Positions 2,776 to 52,991 of a stretch of 52,991 nucleotides of DNA are shown piece after piece (positions within the stretch are counted from its first letter, which is position 1; every line of letters starts with the position of its first letter). The DNA lies in the IMG/VR virus record IMGVR_UViG_3300011896_000001, positions 1 to 52,991 of that record; one strand, 5' to 3'. Made by a program: the position numbers and the translations under genes. The DNA comes from a virus. Below the pieces are notes generated by a model, which was given only the letters and a program-made list of their open reading frames with translations, had not been told where the DNA came from and did not search any database.

Positions 2776-2955
2776 GATGCTTTCACGCATCGGAATATCC
2801 AGGAACCCATTTACTAGGTGGGGGATACCGTTAAATTCCTGAATATTCCGACAAGCGAAGGCTTGTCCTAAGAAAGACGTCTTGGCGATGACCTGCGATG
2901 TATTATGGTGCAGCTCCCCTGTTAAGGATCATGGCTCGCTCTCGCTATTTCTTCC
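2776..2955 (-). ncRNA. Structured ORF-free intercistronic RNA element in the early operon; identity unknown.
   Basis: Three adjacent helices are present. GATGC/GCATC is at 2776-2791. A 14-bp stem at 2791-2804 / 2837-2850 has its single non-Watson-Crick pair as G-U only on the minus strand. gacaagc-gaag-gcttgtc is at 2850-2867. The tract is GC-enriched and has stops in all frames. Confidence 0.45.
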
Positions 2956-3153
2956 CTACCTGCTAGCATGGACTAACCATGATAGCAACGCTCTTAGCTT
3001 AAAGGGCTTGTTTATAGTCGCTAAGACGACTTTTATTGATTTTGGCATGTACATCTTCATTGTTATCCACAGTTTTGCGAATGGATGATCACCAGGTTTC
3101 GTGAAGCAATATTCATTGTAGAATCCCGTATTCAATTTCCCTTTAAAAATCAT
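2956..3153 (-). CDS. Hypothetical protein, 65 aa.
   Basis: Track ORF. An AAAGGGG RBS lies 9 nt upstream of the ATG at 3153. The C-terminal part runs into the structured tract, so the real end is uncertain. Confidence 0.4.
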   Translation of the reverse strand: MIFKGKLNTGFYNEYCFTKPGDHPFAKLWITMKMYMPKSIKVVLATINKPFKLRALLSWLVHASR

Positions 3154-5344: not shown

Positions 5345-5491
5345 TTACCAGCCCCCGCCTGGATCAGTCATCATGCGTTGAACAACAGGCTCAGATGCTT
5401 CTTGTTTATCATTCGTTTGTTGGTTATCAGTAGAAAAAGTGAACAACCCTGCTACTAATAAAATTGGTAATAAAGCTAATATTTTTTTCAA
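5345..5491 (-). CDS. Secreted signalling pro-peptide, AimP/PapR/NprX-like, 48 aa: MKKILALLPILLVAGLFTFSTDNQQTNDKQEASEPVVQRMMTDPGGGW.
   Basis: My own translation. TTG start with an AGAGGTGG RBS 6 nt upstream. The N-terminus has signal-peptide features, followed by a polar linker. The gene lies 40 nt downstream of the HTH-TPR receptor gene. Confidence 0.65.
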   Translation of the reverse strand: MKKILALLPILLVAGLFTFSTDNQQTNDKQEASEPVVQRMMTDPGGGW

Positions 5492-5531
5492 TATTTCCAC
5501 CTCTTCTTTCGAAGATAATTATACCATTTTT

Positions 5532-6683
5532 TCATAGTAAACCCAAGTAAAATTTAGGTAATTGCGAATAATGGATATTACCAGATTTTTGGCACATCAG
5601 CAAGGACTTTCGTAGTAGAGTTTCCCTCTCTTCTCCTTCGCATGTAAGAGCATAGTACGTCGTTTGGATATCTGTCCATCCTCCGTTTTTCTCTTTTAAA
5701 TCTAATAAAATCTTTTTAGCACCTAAAATATCACCTTCGAGTATCTTTGAATATGCATTTTCACTTGGATGTACAAATTCCAAGGTATCCAAATCTCTTT
5801 GATAATGAATTTTCAAGAAAGATAAGGTTTGTTGGACAAGTTTCCATTTCTTTTCTAACCCTTTGCAATTAGGTTTCCCCAATAATTCTAAGGTTTTCTC
5901 TAAATAAAACTTAGCGTTTTCGTAATTTTCAGGTTCGAATATTAATGACTCACCTATTTTCAAATATGCATTTAATTTTGGAAGTGAGAAAAAGCCATCC
6001 CACTCTAATTCATCTAATATATCTCGGCATATGGAACGAGATTCAACTACTTCTCCACCTTGTAAAGAAGTTACCGCCATTGCTTCCTTATATCTTAGTA
6101 ACAAACATTCTTTTATAAATTTATTTGTTGTGTCATTTATTTTTTCGTTAACTGACTTTAGTCTTTCATATAACGTTTTATAGTTTCCAGATTGATATTG
6201 CGCTTGACATAATAAGATCTCCGTCAAAACTTCCATTTCAATCGTTTTAACATTCTTATTCTTTTGTCTTAATAATTTGAAATAAGTTGAAGCATTCAAA
6301 CCTTCATGATATCTTCGAAAAATTATTTCGTATACTTCTGCAAATTCTCTATTTTCGGCAACATCAGAATGAGCCTCTTGATCTATAATCGCTTTCAATA
6401 ATTCGAATTTGCCTCTAATAGCTAAGTCTTCCATAGCTTCTCTTAAATTTTCAGGTTTGGGGTCTGTGTTCATTATATAGTCATTAACAACTTTCGCCTG
6501 TGAAATCAAACTCTTTTTTAATAAAATAAGCGTCTTCGAAAGATATCCGAAACTAATATCGTTAGCTCCTTTAAATACTTTGGTAACTGTAGCAGGCTTC
6601 ACTCCCCAATAATCAGCTAACTGCTTCTTCTTAAATCCAGCTACATATAATTCTCCTTCAAGATTGTTTAATACCTTCCACAC
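5532..6683 (-). CDS. RRNPP-family peptide receptor/regulator (HTH plus TPR-like repeats), AimR-like, 383 aa from the GTG start.
   Basis: The N-terminal FKKKQLADYWGVKPATVTKVF is an HTH. The rest is a long helical repeat body. The C-terminal QKSGNIHYSQLPKFYLGLL resembles the AimR tail KKSNDKFLIRLPLLEL. An AAAGGGAGG RBS lies 8 nt before the GTG at 6683; the ATG at 6782 has no RBS. Confidence 0.7.
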   Translation of the reverse strand: MWKVLNNLEGELYVAGFKKKQLADYWGVKPATVTKVFKGANDISFGYLSKTLILLKKSLISQAKVVNDYIMNTDPKPENLREAMEDLAIRGKFELLKAIIDQEAHSDVAENREFAEVYEIIFRRYHEGLNASTYFKLLRQKNKNVKTIEMEVLTEILLCQAQYQSGNYKTLYERLKSVNEKINDTTNKFIKECLLLRYKEAMAVTSLQGGEVVESRSICRDILDELEWDGFFSLPKLNAYLKIGESLIFEPENYENAKFYLEKTLELLGKPNCKGLEKKWKLVQQTLSFLKIHYQRDLDTLEFVHPSENAYSKILEGDILGAKKILLDLKEKNGGWTDIQTTYYALTCEGEERETLLRKSLLMCQKSGNIHYSQLPKFYLGLL

Positions 6684-6860
6684 TTCTTGTTCCTCCCTTT
6701 TGGAACAAAGACGCTTCGCTCTTTTTCTCAACTTTTTAAACAGGAAATTCATACCATAGTAATGCTTTAGTAATATCGGCATGTTATAATGTAAGTGTTA
6801 CTCGTGTAGTAACCGAAAAGAGACTTATGGCAGATGTTCCCCTCGTGAGTCGGGCGAACG

Positions 6861-9163: not shown

Positions 9164-9847
9164 CTATTTCCGTAGGTGGGTTTCTTCAAATTCATCAGCA
9201 TCATGAAAGCCTAGATCAAACGAATATAGCGTTTCTAATGTCTCCGAAGCTCCGATATATTTCAAAATACTTTCAATATCTTTATATGATTGAAAATACA
9301 ACGTTTTTGCTTTTGGTATTTTACCATCAGTCTGTAACTTCTTCTTTTTAATCCCTAATTCCTCGAACATAAACTCATTTAAATGTTCCAAGATATCTGT
9401 AGATCCATGAATACGTAAGCGAGGTCTAACGTAAATTTTGTTGTTTTTTCGTTTCTCTTTCATTGTACCGAGATCGTGTCGCATTAAAATATAAGTTTTC
9501 ACGAATACTTCTTTATTAAACTCACCTTTAGGAAATGCTCTAGATTTTTCTTGTATCGGTGTCCAACCTAGTTCTTTAACTTTTCTGATAAACGGGTGAC
9601 TACTATTCATAGATGTGTACCATTCTACATACCCTTTATCTTCACGATATCTTGATTTTGTTTCTTTTCCAAAGAAATCAGCAAACCTCTTTACTATCGC
9701 TTGTGACTTATGAGTAAATTGAAAATAGCAATTCCCATACACATTTGTTTCATAACCATTTCGCCAAACCATACCTAAAGCCTCTGAAAATGCATCTGTT
9801 TTAATAAAATCATCTATCCAATTTTTTTCGATAAGATTATTAGCCAT
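9164..9847 (-). CDS. Hypothetical protein, 227 aa; possible degenerate double-motif LAGLIDADG-like fold.
   Basis: Two motif-like segments lie about 93 aa apart (EALGMVWRNGY and YILMRHDLGT). Each is followed by the strand / helix / ..FG or ..LGI pattern typical of that fold, but the acidic residues are not conserved. An AAGGGG RBS is present, and a terminator hairpin overlaps the stop. Confidence 0.6.
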   Translation of the reverse strand: MANNLIEKNWIDDFIKTDAFSEALGMVWRNGYETNVYGNCYFQFTHKSQAIVKRFADFFGKETKSRYREDKGYVEWYTSMNSSHPFIRKVKELGWTPIQEKSRAFPKGEFNKEVFVKTYILMRHDLGTMKEKRKNNKIYVRPRLRIHGSTDILEHLNEFMFEELGIKKKKLQTDGKIPKAKTLYFQSYKDIESILKYIGASETLETLYSFDLGFHDADEFEETHLRK

Positions 9848-10249
9848 AAAATATTCCCCTTAAATTTTATCCTTCTAATCAATTGTAAAATAAAACATTA
9901 TTTCTATAAACAAGCAATTAATCTTTTAAATTTCACGTACTATACCTGTTGTGTAAAACCTAATTCAGCAATAAGGCCTATTCTATCCTTCATCCCCTTA
10001 TCCTCTAACCAAGTAAGTAGTAAATCCTATATTTATTCCTCTATCTTAGTGAGTAGATCCCCCGGAAGTTAAACAATCTCATGTTTTTCATCTTTTCTTC
10101 GCAATTAAGCTTGACTGAAGATCTTGAAGGTTTGCATCATGTGGGAACGATTATGGAATACGGCTGGAAGGCAGATTTATCCCCTACTTTGAAAGATCAC
10201 AAAAAAAGTAATCGATCAAAATAGATGGATAAGCGTCTTGTTTTTGCCA

Positions 10250-10540
10250 TGCGGTCACTTATAAGGTATCCGTATGTATAGACCCTGTTCACTCAGCGAT
10301 TTTCACCGCATACATCCTTTTACTATGGCTTGTCCTTGTAATATCGTCCCTACACGACAAACTGAATGTACTCCCTAGCACCTTGATGCTAACGATAACC
10401 ACCGAACCTTTTAGAGAATCGTCCCTGGGTAAGTTCTCACCCGCCCTCACCAGAAGAACAGGATTCCGATGAGGGGTGCTGTTTTTGTAGGCGCATACTC
10501 TGTACCCCCTGCACGACCAACAGCTAGCCACGCACGTAAC
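10250..10540 (-). ncRNA. GC-enriched structured RNA candidate of about 290 nt; identity unknown.
   Basis: No credible ORF. The hairpin GCGGU-GAAA-AUCGC (10296-10309) pairs only on the minus strand. Further stems are CCCTCA/TGAGGG (10444-10475) and GGGUGA-GAAC-UUACCC (10427-10442). The minus-strand 5' end reads GUGCG. Confidence 0.4.
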
Positions 10541-10741
10541 ACGTTCCTCCTATATGTATAGCAGCACGGAATTACGGCTTATCAGTTTTTATTTACGTGG
10601 TATCAGGCAATTCCACGCGAACAAAAAACAAAAAGGCATCCCAAATTCCTAAATGGCCTGCGGATCCACAAGACTTCTAGGTTTAGAGATGCCCGCTATA
10701 TATCTTTTGACTACAAAAAATACAATTCTAGCATTTACTAG

Positions 10742-10770
10742 TTGAATTTTAGTCAAACAATAGATAAAAT
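10742..10770 (+). promoter_or_regulatory. Sigma-A-type promoter: TTGAAT-17-TAAAAT.
   Basis: -35 at 10742-10747, exact 17-nt spacer, -10 at 10765-10770. Confidence 0.6.
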
Positions 10771-10776
10771 GGGTAT

Positions 10777-11070
10777 ATCAAAGAAGCCTCGTGAAAAGGC
10801 ATAGTTGTTTAAGGATAGTGTTGGTGCACTACTTAAACGTAAATACTGTGGGTTAATACAGTTCGTTTCTAGCCAAGTGGTGGTACACTAGCTAGATAAG
10901 TCATTCCCGCTAAAGGTTGGTAGCCGTTAGCATATGGGAGTGGCTTTTTGTTTTGTGTTCATATTCAATTGTCTTGCTCAATCTATTTATGTAGATTTGA
11001 TTTATCAAAATATGTTTTGTTTTGTAGAATGTTGCTTGTTGTGTACTACGTTACAACAAGCTTTTTTGTT
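10777..11070 (+). ncRNA. Candidate non-coding transcript of about 290 nt, from the promoter at 10742 to a strong terminator at 11034-11070.
   Basis: The terminator is gcttgttgt-N10-acaacaagc followed by TTTTTTGTTTG, with a T-run only on the plus strand. Internal stems are TAGTG/CACTA, ACTGT/ACAGT and CTAGC/GCTAG. gttttgttttgt occurs twice. No ORF has an RBS. Confidence 0.5.
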
Positions 11071-11121
11071 TGTAAATGCCCCTATAAGTAGGTTTATACC
11101 ATCTAGTTAACTTAATTGAAG

Positions 11122-11238
11122 GATACAAAGATAGAAAGATACAAAGATACATTTATCCTTAGATACAAAGATACATAGTTTACCTTTGTGTATCTTTAGA
11201 TACAAAGATAAAAAGATAGAAAGATAAAAAGATACATA
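11122..11238. repeat. Phased 8-bp repeat array (GATA[C/G/A]AAA, about 12 units plus one inverted unit); candidate centromere (parS) or iterons.
   Basis: gatacaaa gatagaaa gatacaaa gatacatt tatcctta gatacaaa gatacata ... gatacaaa gataaaaa gatagaaa gataaaaa gatacata, read in register. Confidence 0.8.
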
Positions 11239-11317
11239 AATAAACGTTGATTTTACAAGGTTTTTGTTAAATGTCCTGTACACGTAAAATAGGGGCAATC
11301 TATTAAACATAAAAAAA

Positions 11318-11398
11318 GATACATTTATCCTTTTACTTTTCGTACAATCTCGTGTTATCATCAATTCGAGAATAAAAAGATACAAAGATACATTTATC
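11318..11398. repeat. Two further copies of GATACATTTATCC, with or without a GATACAAA unit, next to the parA promoter region.
   Basis: gatacatttatcc at 11318-11330 and 11386-11398; gatacaaa at 11378-11385. The same 13-mer also occurs at 11146-11158. Confidence 0.7.
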
Positions 11399-11440
11399 CT
11401 TTGTTACAATTATATTACAAATTTAAAAGGAGCGATTCCT

Positions 11441-12370
11441 GTGAAAAAAGGATACGTCATAATCAACGCCCAACAAAAAGGTGGAGTTGGAAAAACAACT
11501 GATTCGTGTATGGAATCTCTTGTAGCTTCTTTAATCTTTAATAAGAAAGTTTTATTTATTGATACTGACCTTCAAGGGAATGGTACATCATTTTTAGCGA
11601 AATCTTTTGATATTACTGAAATGCCTAAAACATTAATGAAATGTCTTGAAGATGGAAACTTATCAGAAGGAATTGTGCATCTGCATGAAAATCTTGATAT
11701 GATCCCATGCGGATATGATATGAGGAAGTACACTGATTTTCTAATTGAGAATTTCAACAATATTGAAGATAGAACTTTTTACCTTGCTAGATTGTTAGAA
11801 AAAATAAAATACAACTACGATTACATATTCATTGATATTCCGCCTTCAACAGATTTAAAAGTGGACAATGCTATGGTAGCTAGTGACTACATTATAGTAG
11901 TTCAAGAGACGCAACAATTTTCATATGAAGGAAGCCAACGTTTAATCTTTGAGTATATGCAGACATTAGTGGATGATTTCGGTTCGCTGGTAAAGCTACA
12001 AGTAGCTGGAGTACTTCCAGTATTACTTCAACAAAAACGTGCCCTACATAAAGAAATTGTAAAAAGTACTATCGCTACTTTTGGTGAAGAAAATGTATTT
12101 AGTACGATTATTAATAATCACGCCCGATTAGAATGGTATCCACGAATCGGACTACAATTTGAGGACCATCACGATAAAAGAATGTTAGCTTTATTCAGTG
12201 ATATTTTCTGTGAATTAGAAGAAAGAATTCATCTTTTTGAAACTGAAGGGGATATAGTTCCAGGCTACAAATACATACCTAAATACCTTGTCGATAATAA
12301 ACTTACTAAATTAGGAAAGGGGATTAACATAAGTGGCTTTAGTCAAAAGAGAACTGCCGAAAGATCCTAA
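11441..12370 (+). CDS. parA: ParA/Soj-family partition ATPase, 309 aa.
   Basis: Deviant Walker A NAQQKGGVGKTT. GTG start with an AAAGGAG RBS. Confidence 0.9.
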   Translation: MKKGYVIINAQQKGGVGKTTDSCMESLVASLIFNKKVLFIDTDLQGNGTSFLAKSFDITEMPKTLMKCLEDGNLSEGIVHLHENLDMIPCGYDMRKYTDFLIENFNNIEDRTFYLARLLEKIKYNYDYIFIDIPPSTDLKVDNAMVASDYIIVVQETQQFSYEGSQRLIFEYMQTLVDDFGSLVKLQVAGVLPVLLQQKRALHKEIVKSTIATFGEENVFSTIINNHARLEWYPRIGLQFEDHHDKRMLALFSDIFCELEERIHLFETEGDIVPGYKYIPKYLVDNKLTKLGKGINISGFSQKRTAERS

Positions 12371-12608
12371 TATAAATGATAAGGCTAATACTACAAGGAA
12401 TACTCAAGGAAAGAAAGTTTTAACAGCTCAAGATAGGAAAAACATTAAAGTTACACCTGAATCATTTAGTAAGATTAAAACCATTTGTACAATGAAGAGT
12501 ATGAAGAATTACGAATTTATTGATGAAATTTTAGAATTCTACATTGCTAATAATTTAACTGAGCGTGAGCAACGCATTTTAAAAAACATAACATCTAACA
12601 ATAAATAG
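12333..12608 (+). CDS. Small DNA-binding protein, probably RHH (ParG/omega-like centromere binder), 91 aa.
   Basis: KNIKVTPESFSKIKTICTMKSMKNYEFIDEILEFYIAN has a strand-helix-helix pattern after a basic unstructured N-terminus. GTG start with a GGAAAGGGG RBS. It overlaps the parA 3' end. Confidence 0.6.
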   Translation: MALVKRELPKDPNINDKANTTRNTQGKKVLTAQDRKNIKVTPESFSKIKTICTMKSMKNYEFIDEILEFYIANNLTEREQRILKNITSNNK

Positions 12609-12631
12609 CTTTAAGTGATTACTAAATAGGA

Positions 12632-12991
12632 GTGGTACCTTTGGAGAATAAAAGTAAATCTTTTGTAGTAACTGTTACACCTATTAATGAAAGTTCAGCT
12701 TTGAATACTCAAAGTGATCCAACTAACACGGAAAAAGAAATACTGACACCAGAGAAACCAGATCAACGTTTAGTTCCATCTAAAACCGCTAAAATTTCAC
12801 CAGCTGTTTTACTAAAGCTAAATACTCTTAAACCATTTATTCAGCAACAAGAGAGTATGGATAAAACATCAATTAACAACATCGTTGATATACTTGTTGA
12901 AAGCTACGTAGATACTCAACTGGTAAATCGACATTCTAAAGCGTATAAAGATATGTACAAACGTCTTTATGAAACACTAGAAAACAAATAA
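12632..12991 (+). CDS. Second small protein, paralogous to 12333..12608 in its C-terminal half, 119 aa.
   Basis: KTAKISPAVLLKLNTLKPF...SINNIVDILVESYVD aligns with IKVTPESFSKIKTI...NYEFIDEILEFYIA. The start is ambiguous: GTG at 12632 or TTG at 12641. Confidence 0.55.
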   Translation: MVPLENKSKSFVVTVTPINESSALNTQSDPTNTEKEILTPEKPDQRLVPSKTAKISPAVLLKLNTLKPFIQQQESMDKTSINNIVDILVESYVDTQLVNRHSKAYKDMYKRLYETLENK

Positions 12992-12996
12992 ACGAC

Positions 12997-13033
12997 AGAA
13001 GTGTCCTGGTTTTCAGGATGCTTCTTTTTTGTT
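12997..13033 (+). terminator. Intrinsic terminator of the par operon.
   Basis: agaag-tg-tcctg gtttt cagga-tg-cttct followed by TTTTTTGTTT. Confidence 0.8.
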
Positions 13034-13040
13034 TAGTATT

Positions 13041-13093
13041 ATGTATCTAAAGATAAATGTATCTTTTTATCCTTTTATCTTTGTATCTTTTTA
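13041..13093. repeat. Inverted-orientation copy of the 8-bp phased array.
   Basis: The reverse complement reads GATACAAA GATAAAAG GATAAAAA GATACATT TATCTTTA GATACAT. Together with the 11122 array it brackets the par operon. Confidence 0.75.
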
Positions 13094-13132
13094 TTTTAAG
13101 CAGGAAAACAAATACTCCTGCTTCGATTTCCC

Positions 13133-13723
13133 TCACCAGAACTTCCACCACGGCTTTTTCTTTTCTCTCACAGCAGCAACCTCATCACGAAACTCCTGCA
13201 TCATTCTCTTCGTTTCCTGCATCTCACGCAGCGTCTTCATCAGTGTCTCGTCCCTGGCTTCCAATCGTTTTTCCACACGTTCATTATGCGCTTCTACGCT
13301 CGCTTTAATTTCCTCGTTACTTTGCTTGGCCTGGTCACTTAATCGTTTCTCCATCGCTAACATACTCTGATTCATTTCTTGCGCCATAACGCTGTACTGT
13401 TCCTGTAGTTGCTGTTTAATATGGAATGGCACTAAGTCCGTTTCCTCAGCCTCTTCTTGAATCAGATCCGGATTAACTTTCTCTATTTGCTGCGCAATCA
13501 TCTTCGCTGCCTTTTCTAGCGTCATACCGTCATGCTTACTCAGTTCAATTAACTTCTCAATCACCATAATGTCATTGTCTGTGTATTGGCGTCTGCCACG
13601 ATTATCTTTCTTTACAGCGAATCCCTCACGCTGTAATACTTCCATGTACTTTCTAAGGGTGCTATCACTTATTCCTAGTCGTTTGTATACTTCACTAGCA
13701 GAATAAACAATTTCGTCCGTCAT
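13133..13723 (-). CDS. MerR-family HTH regulator with a long C-terminal coiled coil, 196 aa.
   Basis: YSASEVYKRLGISDSTLRKYMEVLQREGFAVKKDNRGRRQYTDNDIMVIEKLIEL is a canonical MerR N-domain. Confidence 0.85.
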   Translation of the reverse strand: MTDEIVYSASEVYKRLGISDSTLRKYMEVLQREGFAVKKDNRGRRQYTDNDIMVIEKLIELSKHDGMTLEKAAKMIAQQIEKVNPDLIQEEAEETDLVPFHIKQQLQEQYSVMAQEMNQSMLAMEKRLSDQAKQSNEEIKASVEAHNERVEKRLEARDETLMKTLREMQETKRMMQEFRDEVAAVREKKKPWWKFW

Positions 13724-13794
13724 AACGTCACGACACCTCCTAGTGAGAGTATTCCATGAGGTTTAAAAAAATCCTGCAAATAAAAAAGCCCTGT

Positions 13795-14382
13795 TTATAC
13801 AGAGCTTTTTTCAGCATTTCTTTTCAATTCATTAAGCCTTTTATCTAGGACCTTGAAATCTTTTGACATATCTGTCAACAATCTCATTATTTTTTCATGT
13901 TGTTCATCTTCCTTTTGTGAAATCTTTTGGTTATTTTCAATTATTTCTTGCATATGTTTGAGTCTTTTGTATTCATCTTCGAGTCTTTCTCTTTCTCTAG
14001 TTACCATAGCCTTTTTATTATTAAATCCAATTGTTACATATACAAAACCTAATGCCAAAAGACTTGCAGTAGTACTTATCGAATCAAGAGTATCTTTATC
14101 CAATGATGTTACAAACTTAGAATTCGGATAAACTAGTATACTCATTGTTGCTAAAATATATAATAAGCTATCAATAAATAGTATAAACTTGTTATTCGAA
14201 TTGTTGTGTCTTTTACTTAAAAAGTCTGCTAGTGTCAAACACAATCCTGATGCTGAGATACCAGTCACTAACGCAGAGCTAATATTCGCAGATCCTGTAG
14301 CATTCCAAAGACCTAAACCAACTATTGCCAACCCAAGATATATTGTTATTTTCTCCATATCCCAAAATAAATCTCTTTCCAT
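13795..14382 (-). CDS. Membrane protein (about 4 TM) with a C-terminal coiled coil, 195 aa from MERDLFW.
   Basis: Track ORF 13795..14499. A GGGAAGG RBS lies before the internal ATG at 14382. Confidence 0.6.
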   Translation of the reverse strand: MERDLFWDMEKITIYLGLAIVGLGLWNATGSANISSALVTGISASGLCLTLADFLSKRHNNSNNKFILFIDSLLYILATMSILVYPNSKFVTSLDKDTLDSISTTASLLALGFVYVTIGFNNKKAMVTRERERLEDEYKRLKHMQEIIENNQKISQKEDEQHEKIMRLLTDMSKDFKVLDKRLNELKRNAEKSSV

Positions 14383-52217: not shown

Positions 52218-52991
52218 TTATGCCGTTCTATAACTAACTCCCTTAACTTGGTACAAGTATTTCTTGCTCATTCCATACAAACGATCAGCTGCCGCAAATC
52301 CTATTTTGTCTTCCAATGTGTCTAAGTCTTCATTGCTTGTATACCAAATCGGTAAATTCCGTAAGTATCGTTCATTAATAATCTTGTAATACATATCCTC
52401 TTTGAACTCGCTGTACTTCGATTTTGCTATGTCATCCCACACAAGAATGTCACAAGTGCATAAGTCATGAAGTAATTCGTTTAATCGCTTTTTATTGTCA
52501 TTTAGGAACGCTGCATTTTGTATTTCAGCCATAATATTCACATCCTGAACACATAACACTCGTATCCCTCTTAAACGCCCTGTACGCTCATCTACGACCT
52601 TGAATTTATTCAAAGCGTATTTAGCTGCTGCTATTTGTAAATGAGTCTTACCTAATCCATACGAGTTGTTTTCCTGACGCATTTTGTTTCGTTCTCCTGG
52701 AGGCAAACTTTTTAATCTCGTTTCACCAACTGACGCAATAAAACCGATACTATTCATCTTTGAATCTCTAATTTCGTTAAAGACTTTCAAATACTCGATC
52801 ATAGCATCATATAAAACTTTCTGCACTTCTGCTTCTCTTATGTAGTTATCGAATCGTGCATTTTCAAACTCAGATGGAATCATTGCGTACTTGAAACGAG
52901 ATTTTAGACTTTTCCGTTCTAAGCATTCACATTCGATAGCAACATCAACATATTTTCCTTTTAGAAATTCAGATGGCTCTTTAATGAATGT
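52218..52991 (-). CDS. DnaC/DnaI (IstB-like AAA+) helicase loader. The 3' part is shown here; the ORF runs through the terminal duplication and its 5' end is at 108..257.
   Basis: Walker A is NSYGLGKTHL and Walker B is ILVWDDIAKS. My translation of 52884-52991 is stop-free in the same frame. Confidence 0.85.
   Translation of the reverse strand, partial: TFIKEPSEFLKGKYVDVAIECECLERKSLKSRFKYAMIPSEFENARFDNYIREAEVQKVLYDAMIEYLKVFNEIRDSKMNSIGFIASVGETRLKSLPPGERNKMRQENNSYGLGKTHLQIAAAKYALNKFKVVDERTGRLRGIRVLCVQDVNIMAEIQNAAFLNDNKKRLNELLHDLCTCDILVWDDIAKSKYSEFKEDMYYKIINERYLRNLPIWYTSNEDLDTLEDKIGFAAADRLYGMSKKYLYQVKGVSYRTA
52885..52991. repeat. Second copy of the terminal duplication, identical to 1-107.
   Basis: Exact 107/107 identity, read directly. 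Confidence 0.95.

Follow-up and report, generated by a model that had tools for sequence, protein, structure and literature searches.

The closest described relatives of the partition locus treated here, which occupies positions 11077-13132 of a 52,991-nt stretch of viral DNA (IMG/VR record IMGVR_UViG_3300011896_000001; this whole stretch is called the window), are the PrgP/PrgO system of the Enterococcus plasmid pCF10, the RepB/RepC system of pAD1 and the cenE/PrgO system of an Enterococcus faecium plasmid, in all of which, as in the window, the gene for a small centromere-binding protein (CBP) overlaps the end of parA. The cenE centromere comprises two 7-fold blocks of TATA-containing repeats, each bound independently by PrgO, and, like the centromere of the window, it is made up of blocks of short TA-core repeats (PMC2241845). 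The window differs from these enterococcal systems in that its host replicon is a tailed-phage genome and not a conjugative plasmid, its iteron is GATAnAAA, no RepA_N gene adjoins the locus, its PrgO-like protein (the product of open reading frame 2, ORF2) scores 58 bits against a cutoff of 100, and an extra, truncated CBP of another type (ORF3) is present. The pAD1 iterons, TAGTARRR, are mentioned as background and carry no weight as evidence.

Within the Bacillus cereus group, the orf6/orf10 (repB-like) module of pBMB165, pXO2, pBT9727 and pAW63 likewise consists of a ParA-like gene and an overlapping small gene lying between clusters of 8-bp iterons (7 direct and 3 inverted iterons upstream and 3 downstream, with both genes required for stability); this flanking arrangement stabilizes pBMB165, and the authors of that work pointed out that pAD1 and pCF10 are organized in the same way (PMC1626470). 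Iterons and genes have been exchanged as a unit between these plasmids, as seen with pAW63 and pXO2 (PMC1196294). Unlike the window, they are large theta replicons of the pAMbeta1 family in which a Rep gene adjoins the iterons, their iteron sequence is different, and appended cassettes of truncated CBPs have not been reported in them. The ParF/ParG-parH system of TP228 resembles that of the window in design, with a ribbon-helix-helix (RHH) dimer bearing flexible N-terminal tails (we claim no sequence similarity), and its centromere, parH, consists of short degenerate boxes in an array and serves as the operator too (PMC7308502; PMC3130281). TP228 differs in having parH only upstream of the operon and a single CBP.

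At the level of the whole element, the nearest counterpart is pBFH_1 of B. cereus G9241, an extrachromosomal prophage for which the release of siphovirus particles with its DNA inside has been demonstrated experimentally (PMC10196113). Among the putative plasmid prophages of B. cereus sensu lato it falls in “Group 5,” for which a ParA-Ib ATPase and an RHH adapter have been described (PMC8026635). It shares with the window a conserved block upstream of par, a MerR/DUF3967 gene and replication genes (ERF, DnaD-like and DnaC-like), and Group 5 also has structural kinship with phages 0105phi7-2 and IEBH; in contrast to the window, pBFH_1 carries a par module of what we call type B, an O-type leader cassette (types and cassettes are defined below) and a small integrase-family gene.

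The comparisons reported here favor, with a probability that we put at roughly 0.6 for the explanation as a whole (core, cassette and interference jointly), the reading that 11077-13132 is the plasmid-maintenance island of a circular ~52.9-kb plasmid-prophage of the B. cereus group, in which a PrgP/PrgO-type partition core is followed by a cassette gene, ORF3, that would act against the partition of rival elements.

The replicon and its partition core

The first 107 nt of the window are repeated exactly at its end (1-107 = 52885-52991), a terminal direct repeat indicating that the contig closes as a circle of ~52.9 kb. It carries a full siphovirus gene set (small and large terminase, portal, MuF-like, protease, capsid, tape measure, tail, baseplate and lysin), together with genes for an ERF recombinase, DnaD-like and DnaC-like replication proteins, an antirepressor and an AimR arbitrium receptor. 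One replicon thus joins a complete tailed-phage gene set to a plasmid partition locus, the combination that marks a phage-plasmid. Among the scanned window ORFs of at least 170 aa, family searches found no match to integrases, resolvases or large serine recombinases (Phage_integrase, Resolvase, Recombinase), and a tblastn search of the window with the pBFH_1 integrase-family protein (179 aa) was negative. A total of 113 PLSDB Bacillus plasmid records, each of ~50 kb, match the region 10500-13800, and 327 match the structural-gene segment 26000-50000, which phages 0105phi7-2 and IEBH match in part. The phage collection yielded zero nucleotide matches to 10500-13800 and zero ORF3 homologues, and the cultured phages in it are without this par region. 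A preliminary description of the locus, made from its letters alone, had noted the absence of an integrase and had proposed a low-copy plasmid prophage; the first point agrees with what we found, and the plasmid-prophage reading appears well supported by relatives, given an integrase-less, circular element whose relatives are deposited as plasmids and include the extrachromosomal, virion-producing pBFH_1.

The ParA protein reaches 450.5 bits with the NCBIfam PrgP equivalog model (cutoff 400), matches Pfam AAA_31 (3e-34) and CbiA, and carries GVGKT near its N terminus as a deviant Walker A motif, in agreement with the preliminary description; it has no N-terminal helix-turn-helix domain, which places it in type Ib. 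ORF2 encodes an N-terminal tail (MALVKRELPK...) followed by a C-terminal RHH domain, and its N terminus agrees with those of its homologues, of which the Enterococcus members are 51 to 60% identical to it. NCBIfam PrgO (NF041284) aligns with it end to end at 58.1 bits (E 8e-16), below the curated cutoff of 100, so that by the NCBI criterion ORF2 is a PrgO homologue and not an equivalog. The ORF2 family profile also matches the crystal structure of Reg576 from the Bacillus plasmid p576 (6GYG; E 2.9e-13, profile positions 39-88). Reg576 is an RHH dimer with an added third helix, and its binding sites are direct repeats of TTATCCC (PMC6294495), a motif resembling the TTTATCC within a 13-mer of the window described below.

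The arrays that accompany these genes are far above chance and are conserved in relatives carrying the same PrgP/PrgO module. The preliminary description had counted about 16 GATAnAAA units in strict 8-bp register. Upstream of parA we find 18 GATA-core units, 14 direct and 4 inverted, in a count that takes in degenerate units (GATACATT, GATACATA, GATAAAAG); their spacing is exactly 8 bp inside each of four blocks (11122-11177, 11199-11238, 11318-11330 and 11379-11399), but the blocks are out of common register (phases 2, 7, 6 and 3), so that the strict register holds within blocks and not between them. The strict pattern GATAnAAA accounts for 9 + strand units in 11122-11386 and 2 - strand units in 13064-13087; the whole window has 39 matches against 23.7 expected, with 11 of the 39 concentrated in ~0.4 kb. 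The 13-mer GATACATTTATCC that had been reported in three copies is indeed present in three exact copies, each made of two units head to head, and a fourth, inverted copy with one mismatch lies at 13051-13063. Two copies flank the promoter-like site. Beyond the terminator-like hairpin at the end of the operon, where an inverted array had been noted, the downstream array is an inverted copy of 11114-11167 (87% over 54 nt) in which the unit order of block 1 is kept. The two-sided arrangement had been read, with the two small genes, as an exceptional dual system; arrays that flank a ParA/CBP pair on either side are in fact the norm for the family and no anomaly, because pBMB165, pXO2, pBT9727 and pAW63 already have them.

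The locus thus has a small Walker ParA, an overlapping CBP gene, an RHH domain and iterons that co-vary with the CBP (see below), and on this comparative evidence its core is very probably a partition system of the PrgP/PrgO type (type Ib) with co-varying iterons, as the proposal of a type Ib cassette with iterated centromere-like repeats had held. By analogy with PrgO/cenE, ParG/parH and RepC/pAD1, PrgO-like RHH dimers would cover the phased 8-bp GATA-core iterons that flank the operon on either side and so build a partition complex. The 13-mers flanking the promoter would act as an autoregulatory operator at which PrgO represses its own promoter, and the basic N-terminal tail of PrgO would activate the nucleoid-bound PrgP ATPase, so that plasmid copies are moved apart. 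Taken alone, such a core would be one more member of a known family.

Features of the par region and its immediate flanks (window coordinates)
Feature	Position	Strand	Remarks
Terminator-like hairpin and T-run	11034-11076	+	Terminator scan; left edge of the variable par region and end of the conserved non-coding block (conservation over 115 loci stops at ~11076)
Distal iteron block 1	11122-11177	+	Six direct 8-bp GATA-core units and one inverted; 13-mer GATACATTTATCC at 11146-11158
Perfect palindrome TGTATCTTTAGATACA	11189-11204	none	Two opposed units, between blocks 1 and 2; inverted-repeat search
Distal iteron block 2	11199-11238	+	Five direct 8-bp units
13-mer GATACATTTATCC, presumed operator	11318-11330	+	Abuts the -35 of the par promoter
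Promoter-like site of the par operon	11332-11361	+	TTTACT, 18 nt, TG-TATCAT; consensus match only
Promoter-proximal iterons, presumed autoregulatory operator	11371-11399	+	AATAAAAA GATACAAA GATACATT and an inverted unit, forming the third 13-mer; downstream of the promoter
parA, PrgP-family Walker ATPase	11441-12370	+	309 aa, GTG start
ORF2, PrgO-like resident CBP	12333-12608	+	91 aa; 38-nt overlap with the 3' end of parA
ORF3, leader-type N-terminally truncated paralogue of the R-type CBP	12641-12991	+	116 aa, TTG start
Intrinsic terminator-like hairpin, end of operon	12997-13025	+	Terminator scan
Downstream iteron array	13040-13095	-	5 units on the - strand, 1 on the + strand; inverted copy of block 1
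MerR-HTH/DUF3967 gene (HTH, helix-turn-helix)	13133-13723	-	Pfam; conserved in all relatives; right flank of the variable region, outside the par machinery

Four par modules and the cassette slot

We mapped 58 related loci and then 79 more that were anchored on the neighboring MerR/DUF3967 gene and hence unbiased for par type, 130+ in total (numbered below with the prefix L). Their variable region is bounded by a conserved 1.15-kb non-coding block, which ends at 11076 in the window, and by the MerR gene, and it holds one of four par modules. Type O combines the ParA PrgP with the resident CBP PrgO and the iteron AAAGATAC; type B has ParA273, a CBP of 126 to 130 aa and AATAGGGA; type S has a variant of ParA273, a CBP of 119 aa and TTATAAAA or AAGTATAA; and type R has ParA276, a CBP of 133 aa and AAGTATAC or GTAGAAAA. 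The iteron sequence switches with the type of the resident CBP in every locus examined. Arrays of the B and R types are likewise phased at 8 bp, and in every module two blocks lie upstream, usually with a small array downstream as well.

One or two extra small genes, which we call cassettes, follow the module in 51 of 71 unbiased loci, and each of them is a short form of one of the four CBP types, all four of which have such forms. Short and long forms share a mean identity of 66 to 92% in the DNA-binding domain, with the predicted DNA-reading strand identical or nearly so; the short forms are without the N-terminal 17 to 35 residues of the long form. They begin instead with a common leader, M-E-N-K-x-x-S-F-V-V-T-V-T-P or, in the O type, MDKKYLVTVTP, and a 5' segment of ~80 nt containing the ribosome-binding site (RBS), a non-ATG start codon and the leader is conserved as DNA even between cassettes whose DNA-binding domains are unrelated. 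Tandem pairs of short forms occur in L020, L023, L033, L034 and L039.

The type of the cassette is never that of the resident module: in the MerR-anchored sample, 0 of 56 cassettes were homotypic against 14.0 expected under independence, in a count that takes no account of shared ancestry, and the full set of loci showed 11 of the 12 possible heterotypic pairings and not one of the 4 homotypic pairings. Nor is a given cassette tied to a given module. ORF3-type genes stand unchanged behind B-type and S-type modules with quite different iterons (TCCCTATT, TTATAAAA), and the PrgP/PrgO module is followed by a B-type third gene (L001), an S-type third gene (L005) or none (L072). The downstream GATA array lies after the third gene in the window, L001, L006, L020 and L021; it comes before it, between prgO and the position of the third gene, in L005, L019, L032 and L072, so that the picture of arrays bracketing both small genes, drawn in the preliminary description, does not extend to the latter loci. 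Among the 79 MerR-anchored loci, drawn from a dereplicated collection, no isolate genome held two members of the family.

A role for ORF3 as a second adaptor of this system is therefore unlikely, because genes of its type are independent of the module, the position of the array varies, the tail is absent, homotypic pairs never occur, the window has no cluster of R-type sites and the gene is not decaying (the last two points are documented in the next section). From these comparisons we consider it probable that ORF3 is an allele of a cassette slot, situated between the par module and MerR/DUF3967, that is separate from the resident partition machine. In the limited literature that we searched, we found no description of such a slot of truncated CBPs of other types.

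Iteron clusters of a foreign type were seen in three B-type elements: O-type sites after the ORF3-type gene (L029:4899-4917) and R-type sites near MerR (L082:5436-5499 and L096:5460-5499; the coordinates are those of oriented copies, which for L082 and L096 are the reverse complements of the stored loci). They may be relics of module swaps or extra decoy centromeres.

ORF3 and its possible function

The TTG codon assigned as the start of ORF3 lies 7 nt after the RBS AGGAGTGG and gives a protein of the same size as annotated homologues. The gene begins 32 nt past the prgO stop codon with no terminator between, an arrangement that indicates cotranscription with parA-prgO. Its homologues are confined to the B. 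cereus group, with the exception of Enterococcus ratti. The DNA-binding part (residues 27-116) is 64 to 70% identical to ParB133, and the beta-strand SKTAKISPAV is identical in long and short forms of the family. The long forms (133 to 135 aa, ParA adjacent) are found in Bacillus R-type modules and in E. ratti, and their N-terminal motif (NTLNDKGVQIKGTNDFGRN in Bacillus, NSLNQKNVEIKGKVDFSRN in E. ratti) is absent from ORF3, which has MENKSKSFVVTVTP at that place. The ratio of nonsynonymous to synonymous substitution (dN/dS) is 0.11 to 0.26 for ORF3 and 0.10 in the DNA-binding domain; the gene is under purifying selection and is not decaying.

The E. ratti relative, on scaffold 34 of strain DSM 15687 (L018:447-2114), is a par locus whose 135-aa CBP is 44% identical to ORF3; the CBP gene starts 3 nt after that for a 273-aa ParA, behind GTATAC-rich repeats (22 motif matches). 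The ORF3 family therefore includes genuine ParA-adjacent CBPs, and as judged from these loci the R-type CBP and its iteron core are common to Bacillus and Enterococcus. ORF3 itself has the DNA-binding domain of a CBP partner; it follows prgO and not parA, has no N-terminal tail and, if it reads the same sites as the long form, has no cognate array on its replicon, and leader-type genes are never ParA adjacent in the mapped loci (77 distinct architectures).

The preliminary description had called the two small proteins paralogues. BLASTP gave no alignment between ORF2 and ORF3, and neither Pfam nor NCBIfam had a match for ORF3; comparison of profiles, however, reproduced the proposed register (E 0.0047 in full, 6.8e-4 for the DNA-binding domains only). 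A search of the ORF3 profile against PDB sequences returned only a marginal match to TraM (E 0.9). The AlphaFold2 monomer model of ORF3, which is weak (mean predicted local distance difference test [pLDDT] score of 59), leaves residues 1-46 disordered; a brief extended stretch and then three helices follow, in the order seen in Reg576. Remote common ancestry of ORF2 and ORF3 is likely, because the intermediate CBP types link up through their DNA-binding-domain profiles (O-S 3.7e-7, B-R 7.9e-7, O-B 5.7e-5), the O type is anchored on a solved RHH structure and the ORF3 model matches the order of Reg576. The suggestion of two paralogous RHH-like proteins is thus supported, in the sense of remote homologues within RHH-type CBP families.

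On the assumption that the short form keeps the specificity of the long form, we searched the 53-kb window for the R-type sites that ORF3 would read (AGTATAC and GTAGAAA(A/T)G) and found no cluster or pair of them, the 11 scattered matches being about the random expectation. Targets of ORF3 elsewhere on its own genome were considered and dropped, as the window has no R-type site cluster.

Several features of the cassettes instead suggest that they are directed outward. In ParG-type RHH CBPs, the N-terminal tail contacts and activates the ATPase and carries an arginine finger (PMC7308502), and it is the tail that the short forms are without. ORF3 would bind the GTATAC/GTAGAAAA iterons of R-type relatives and, being tail-less, would block or poison the R-type partition complex or repress the R-type par operon, in trans and as a dominant negative. 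Incompatibility or exclusion would thereby extend to rivals that escape ordinary same-type par incompatibility, and the resident type would be avoided because a homotypic decoy would poison its own element, which is a requirement of such a function. That ORF3 acts in this way against rival R-type plasmid-prophages is possible, at odds a little short of even. The general form of the proposal, namely, that the plasmid-prophages of the B. cereus group possess a swappable slot of tail-less “decoy” CBPs of rival types that serve as a type-specific anti-partition weapon, is more tentative still; a decoy would bind the rival centromere or par operator, or heterodimerize with the rival CBP, without activating ParA, and the rival, no longer segregating, would be lost. 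A precedent for conflict between mobile elements that is aimed at partition is that of SGI1 and the IncC plasmids, where one mobile element displaces another via its partition system (PMC10954446). The likeness extends to the proposed function only, since SGI1 uses decoy centromere sites (parS mimicry) and a small protein, Sci, and hijacks the ParAB of its helper, whereas the agent proposed here is a tail-less rival CBP.

Several observations weigh against this reading. Interference by ORF3 is something that we infer from the comparative pattern. The function is dispensable, since 20 of the 71 relatives are without any cassette. The heterotypic rule, apart from the question of shared ancestry raised by its count, could stem in part from recombinational loss of homotypic direct repeats, and the conserved leader is left without an assigned role. 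The assignment of ORF3 to the RHH fold is indirect, in that its structural model is weak, Foldseek returned only noise when the model was compared with the PDB, and the hhalign match between ORF3 and PrgO is weak (E ~1e-3). O-type and R-type iterons are related (GATAGAAA versus GTAGAAAA), so that cross-binding of ORF3 to the arrays of the window is possible, and the location of ORF3 inside the array bracket and in the par operon of the window fits the earlier view equally.

That earlier view, in which ORF2 and ORF3 are both CBPs of one dual-adaptor type Ib system and each recognizes either or both inverted GATA arrays, draws on the bracketing of all three genes by the arrays in the window, L001, L006, L020 and L021, on the cotranscription of ORF3 with parA-prgO, on the remote RHH homology of the two proteins and on the TA-core and A-tract design common to O- and R-type iterons. 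We nevertheless consider it quite improbable: unchanged ORF3-type genes stand behind B- and S-type modules with sequence-unrelated iterons, the same PrgP/PrgO module goes with third genes of different types or with none, the downstream array precedes the third gene in L005, L019 and L032, and the N-terminal motif kept in the ParA-adjacent relatives is missing from ORF3.

Alternatively, the leader-type proteins, although derived from CBP genes, could be ordinary RHH regulators, of the CopG/Reg576 kind, that control phage or plasmid genes of their own element and not of rivals. RHH CBPs generally double as repressors, the cassettes adjoin a MerR-type regulator gene, and the solved structure nearest to the PrgO domain, that of Reg576, belongs to a tail-less RHH protein that represses plasmid establishment genes. 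Reg576 is homologous to the PrgO DNA-binding domain and, like the leader-type proteins, is without the ParA-contacting tail; unlike the window proteins, it is a stand-alone protein that represses conjugative establishment genes through operators on its own plasmid, with no adjoining par locus. A regulatory role of this kind is unlikely, in our estimate, as the backbone is conserved while the cassettes vary among four kinds of DNA-binding type, so that an operator in the backbone would have to co-vary; moreover, the scattered R-type matches in the window are at the random level, with no pair or cluster, and the strict avoidance of the resident type is left without a reason. Somewhat less likely again is that the leader-type genes are functionless by-products, or a reservoir, of par-module swapping, either leftovers of old resident CBPs or silent cassettes that change par specificity by recombining through the conserved leader. 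Backbones that are otherwise alike clearly carry exchanged par modules, pAW63 and pXO2 offer a known case of module exchange in which the iterons co-vary (PMC1196294), arrays of another type, perhaps relics, occur in L029 (O type) and in L082 and L096 (R type), a few cassettes are truncated (L037, L038, L053), and the 5' leader is conserved at the DNA level, with a dS of 0.32 versus 0.58 in the DNA-binding domain. However, the ORF3 protein is under purifying selection (omega 0.1 to 0.26), a strong RBS of its own and an uninterrupted frame are found in almost every copy, a swap of the DNA-binding domain alone would uncouple the CBP from its iterons, and leftovers would not be expected to be always heterotypic or to have one engineered N terminus.

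If the interference reading is right, the decoys would help to explain the upkeep of four par specificities in one phage family. The cassette pattern makes competition between related low-copy plasmids or phage-plasmids in one host simply testable, there being four specificity types, each with a full-length protein, a tail-less protein and a candidate site. Should the tail-less proteins destabilize plasmids of the matching type, they would represent a new class of inter-element conflict system and could supply a ready, sequence-specific means of curing B. cereus-group plasmids, among which are relatives of pBFH_1, the phagemid of anthrax-like strains.

Other regions of the element

The DnaD-like gene (136-936) and the DnaC-like gene (52218-52883) adjoin across the junction of the circle. 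Tandem repeats within the DnaD-like gene, at 520-640 (a 15-nt unit ×2.6 and a 22-nt unit ×3.8; GTTTCTCTGAGACACTACCCTA), may be origin iterons of the phage replication module. The AimR-family arbitrium receptor gene lies at 5532-6782 on the - strand (NCBIfam, 370 bits) and is followed by a 51-aa ORF (5345-5500, - strand) with a signal-peptide-like N terminus and the end ...MMTDPGGGW, a candidate for the AimP pro-peptide. A Pistol self-cleaving ribozyme (2954-3031, - strand; 59.3 bits against a gathering score of 34.5) was found in the early region, where it lies between the genes for ERF and the antirepressor.

The conserved 1.15-kb non-coding block (9928-11076), which adjoins the par arrays on their left, occurs in each of the 115 related loci that cover the upstream region, whatever their par type. 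Its GC-rich core (~10140-10700) has a GC content of 0.47 to 0.50 against ~0.30, a column identity of 95 to 98% and no ORF. Rfam gave no match for the block at E values up to 1. The minus strand of the core folds better than its shuffles (z = -3.85, against -0.77 for the plus strand), and RNAalifold, run on 62 distinct sequences, gave 171 pairs, 16 of them with compensatory double changes versus 1 to 3 when the partners were slid. The core is thus a candidate for a structured RNA of ~550 nt, encoded on the minus strand and transcribed away from parA, which may, as a speculation, be part of the plasmid-mode replicon of these phages. A group II intron, suggested by a GUGCG-like motif in the block, was dropped from consideration, there being no Rfam match and no evident domain V-like hairpin. 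Beside the block, a 227-aa ORF (9164-9847, - strand) has a faint LAGLIDADG/WhiA-like match (E 0.064), and this segment, being confined to ~8 of the 115 related loci, has the look of an insertion.

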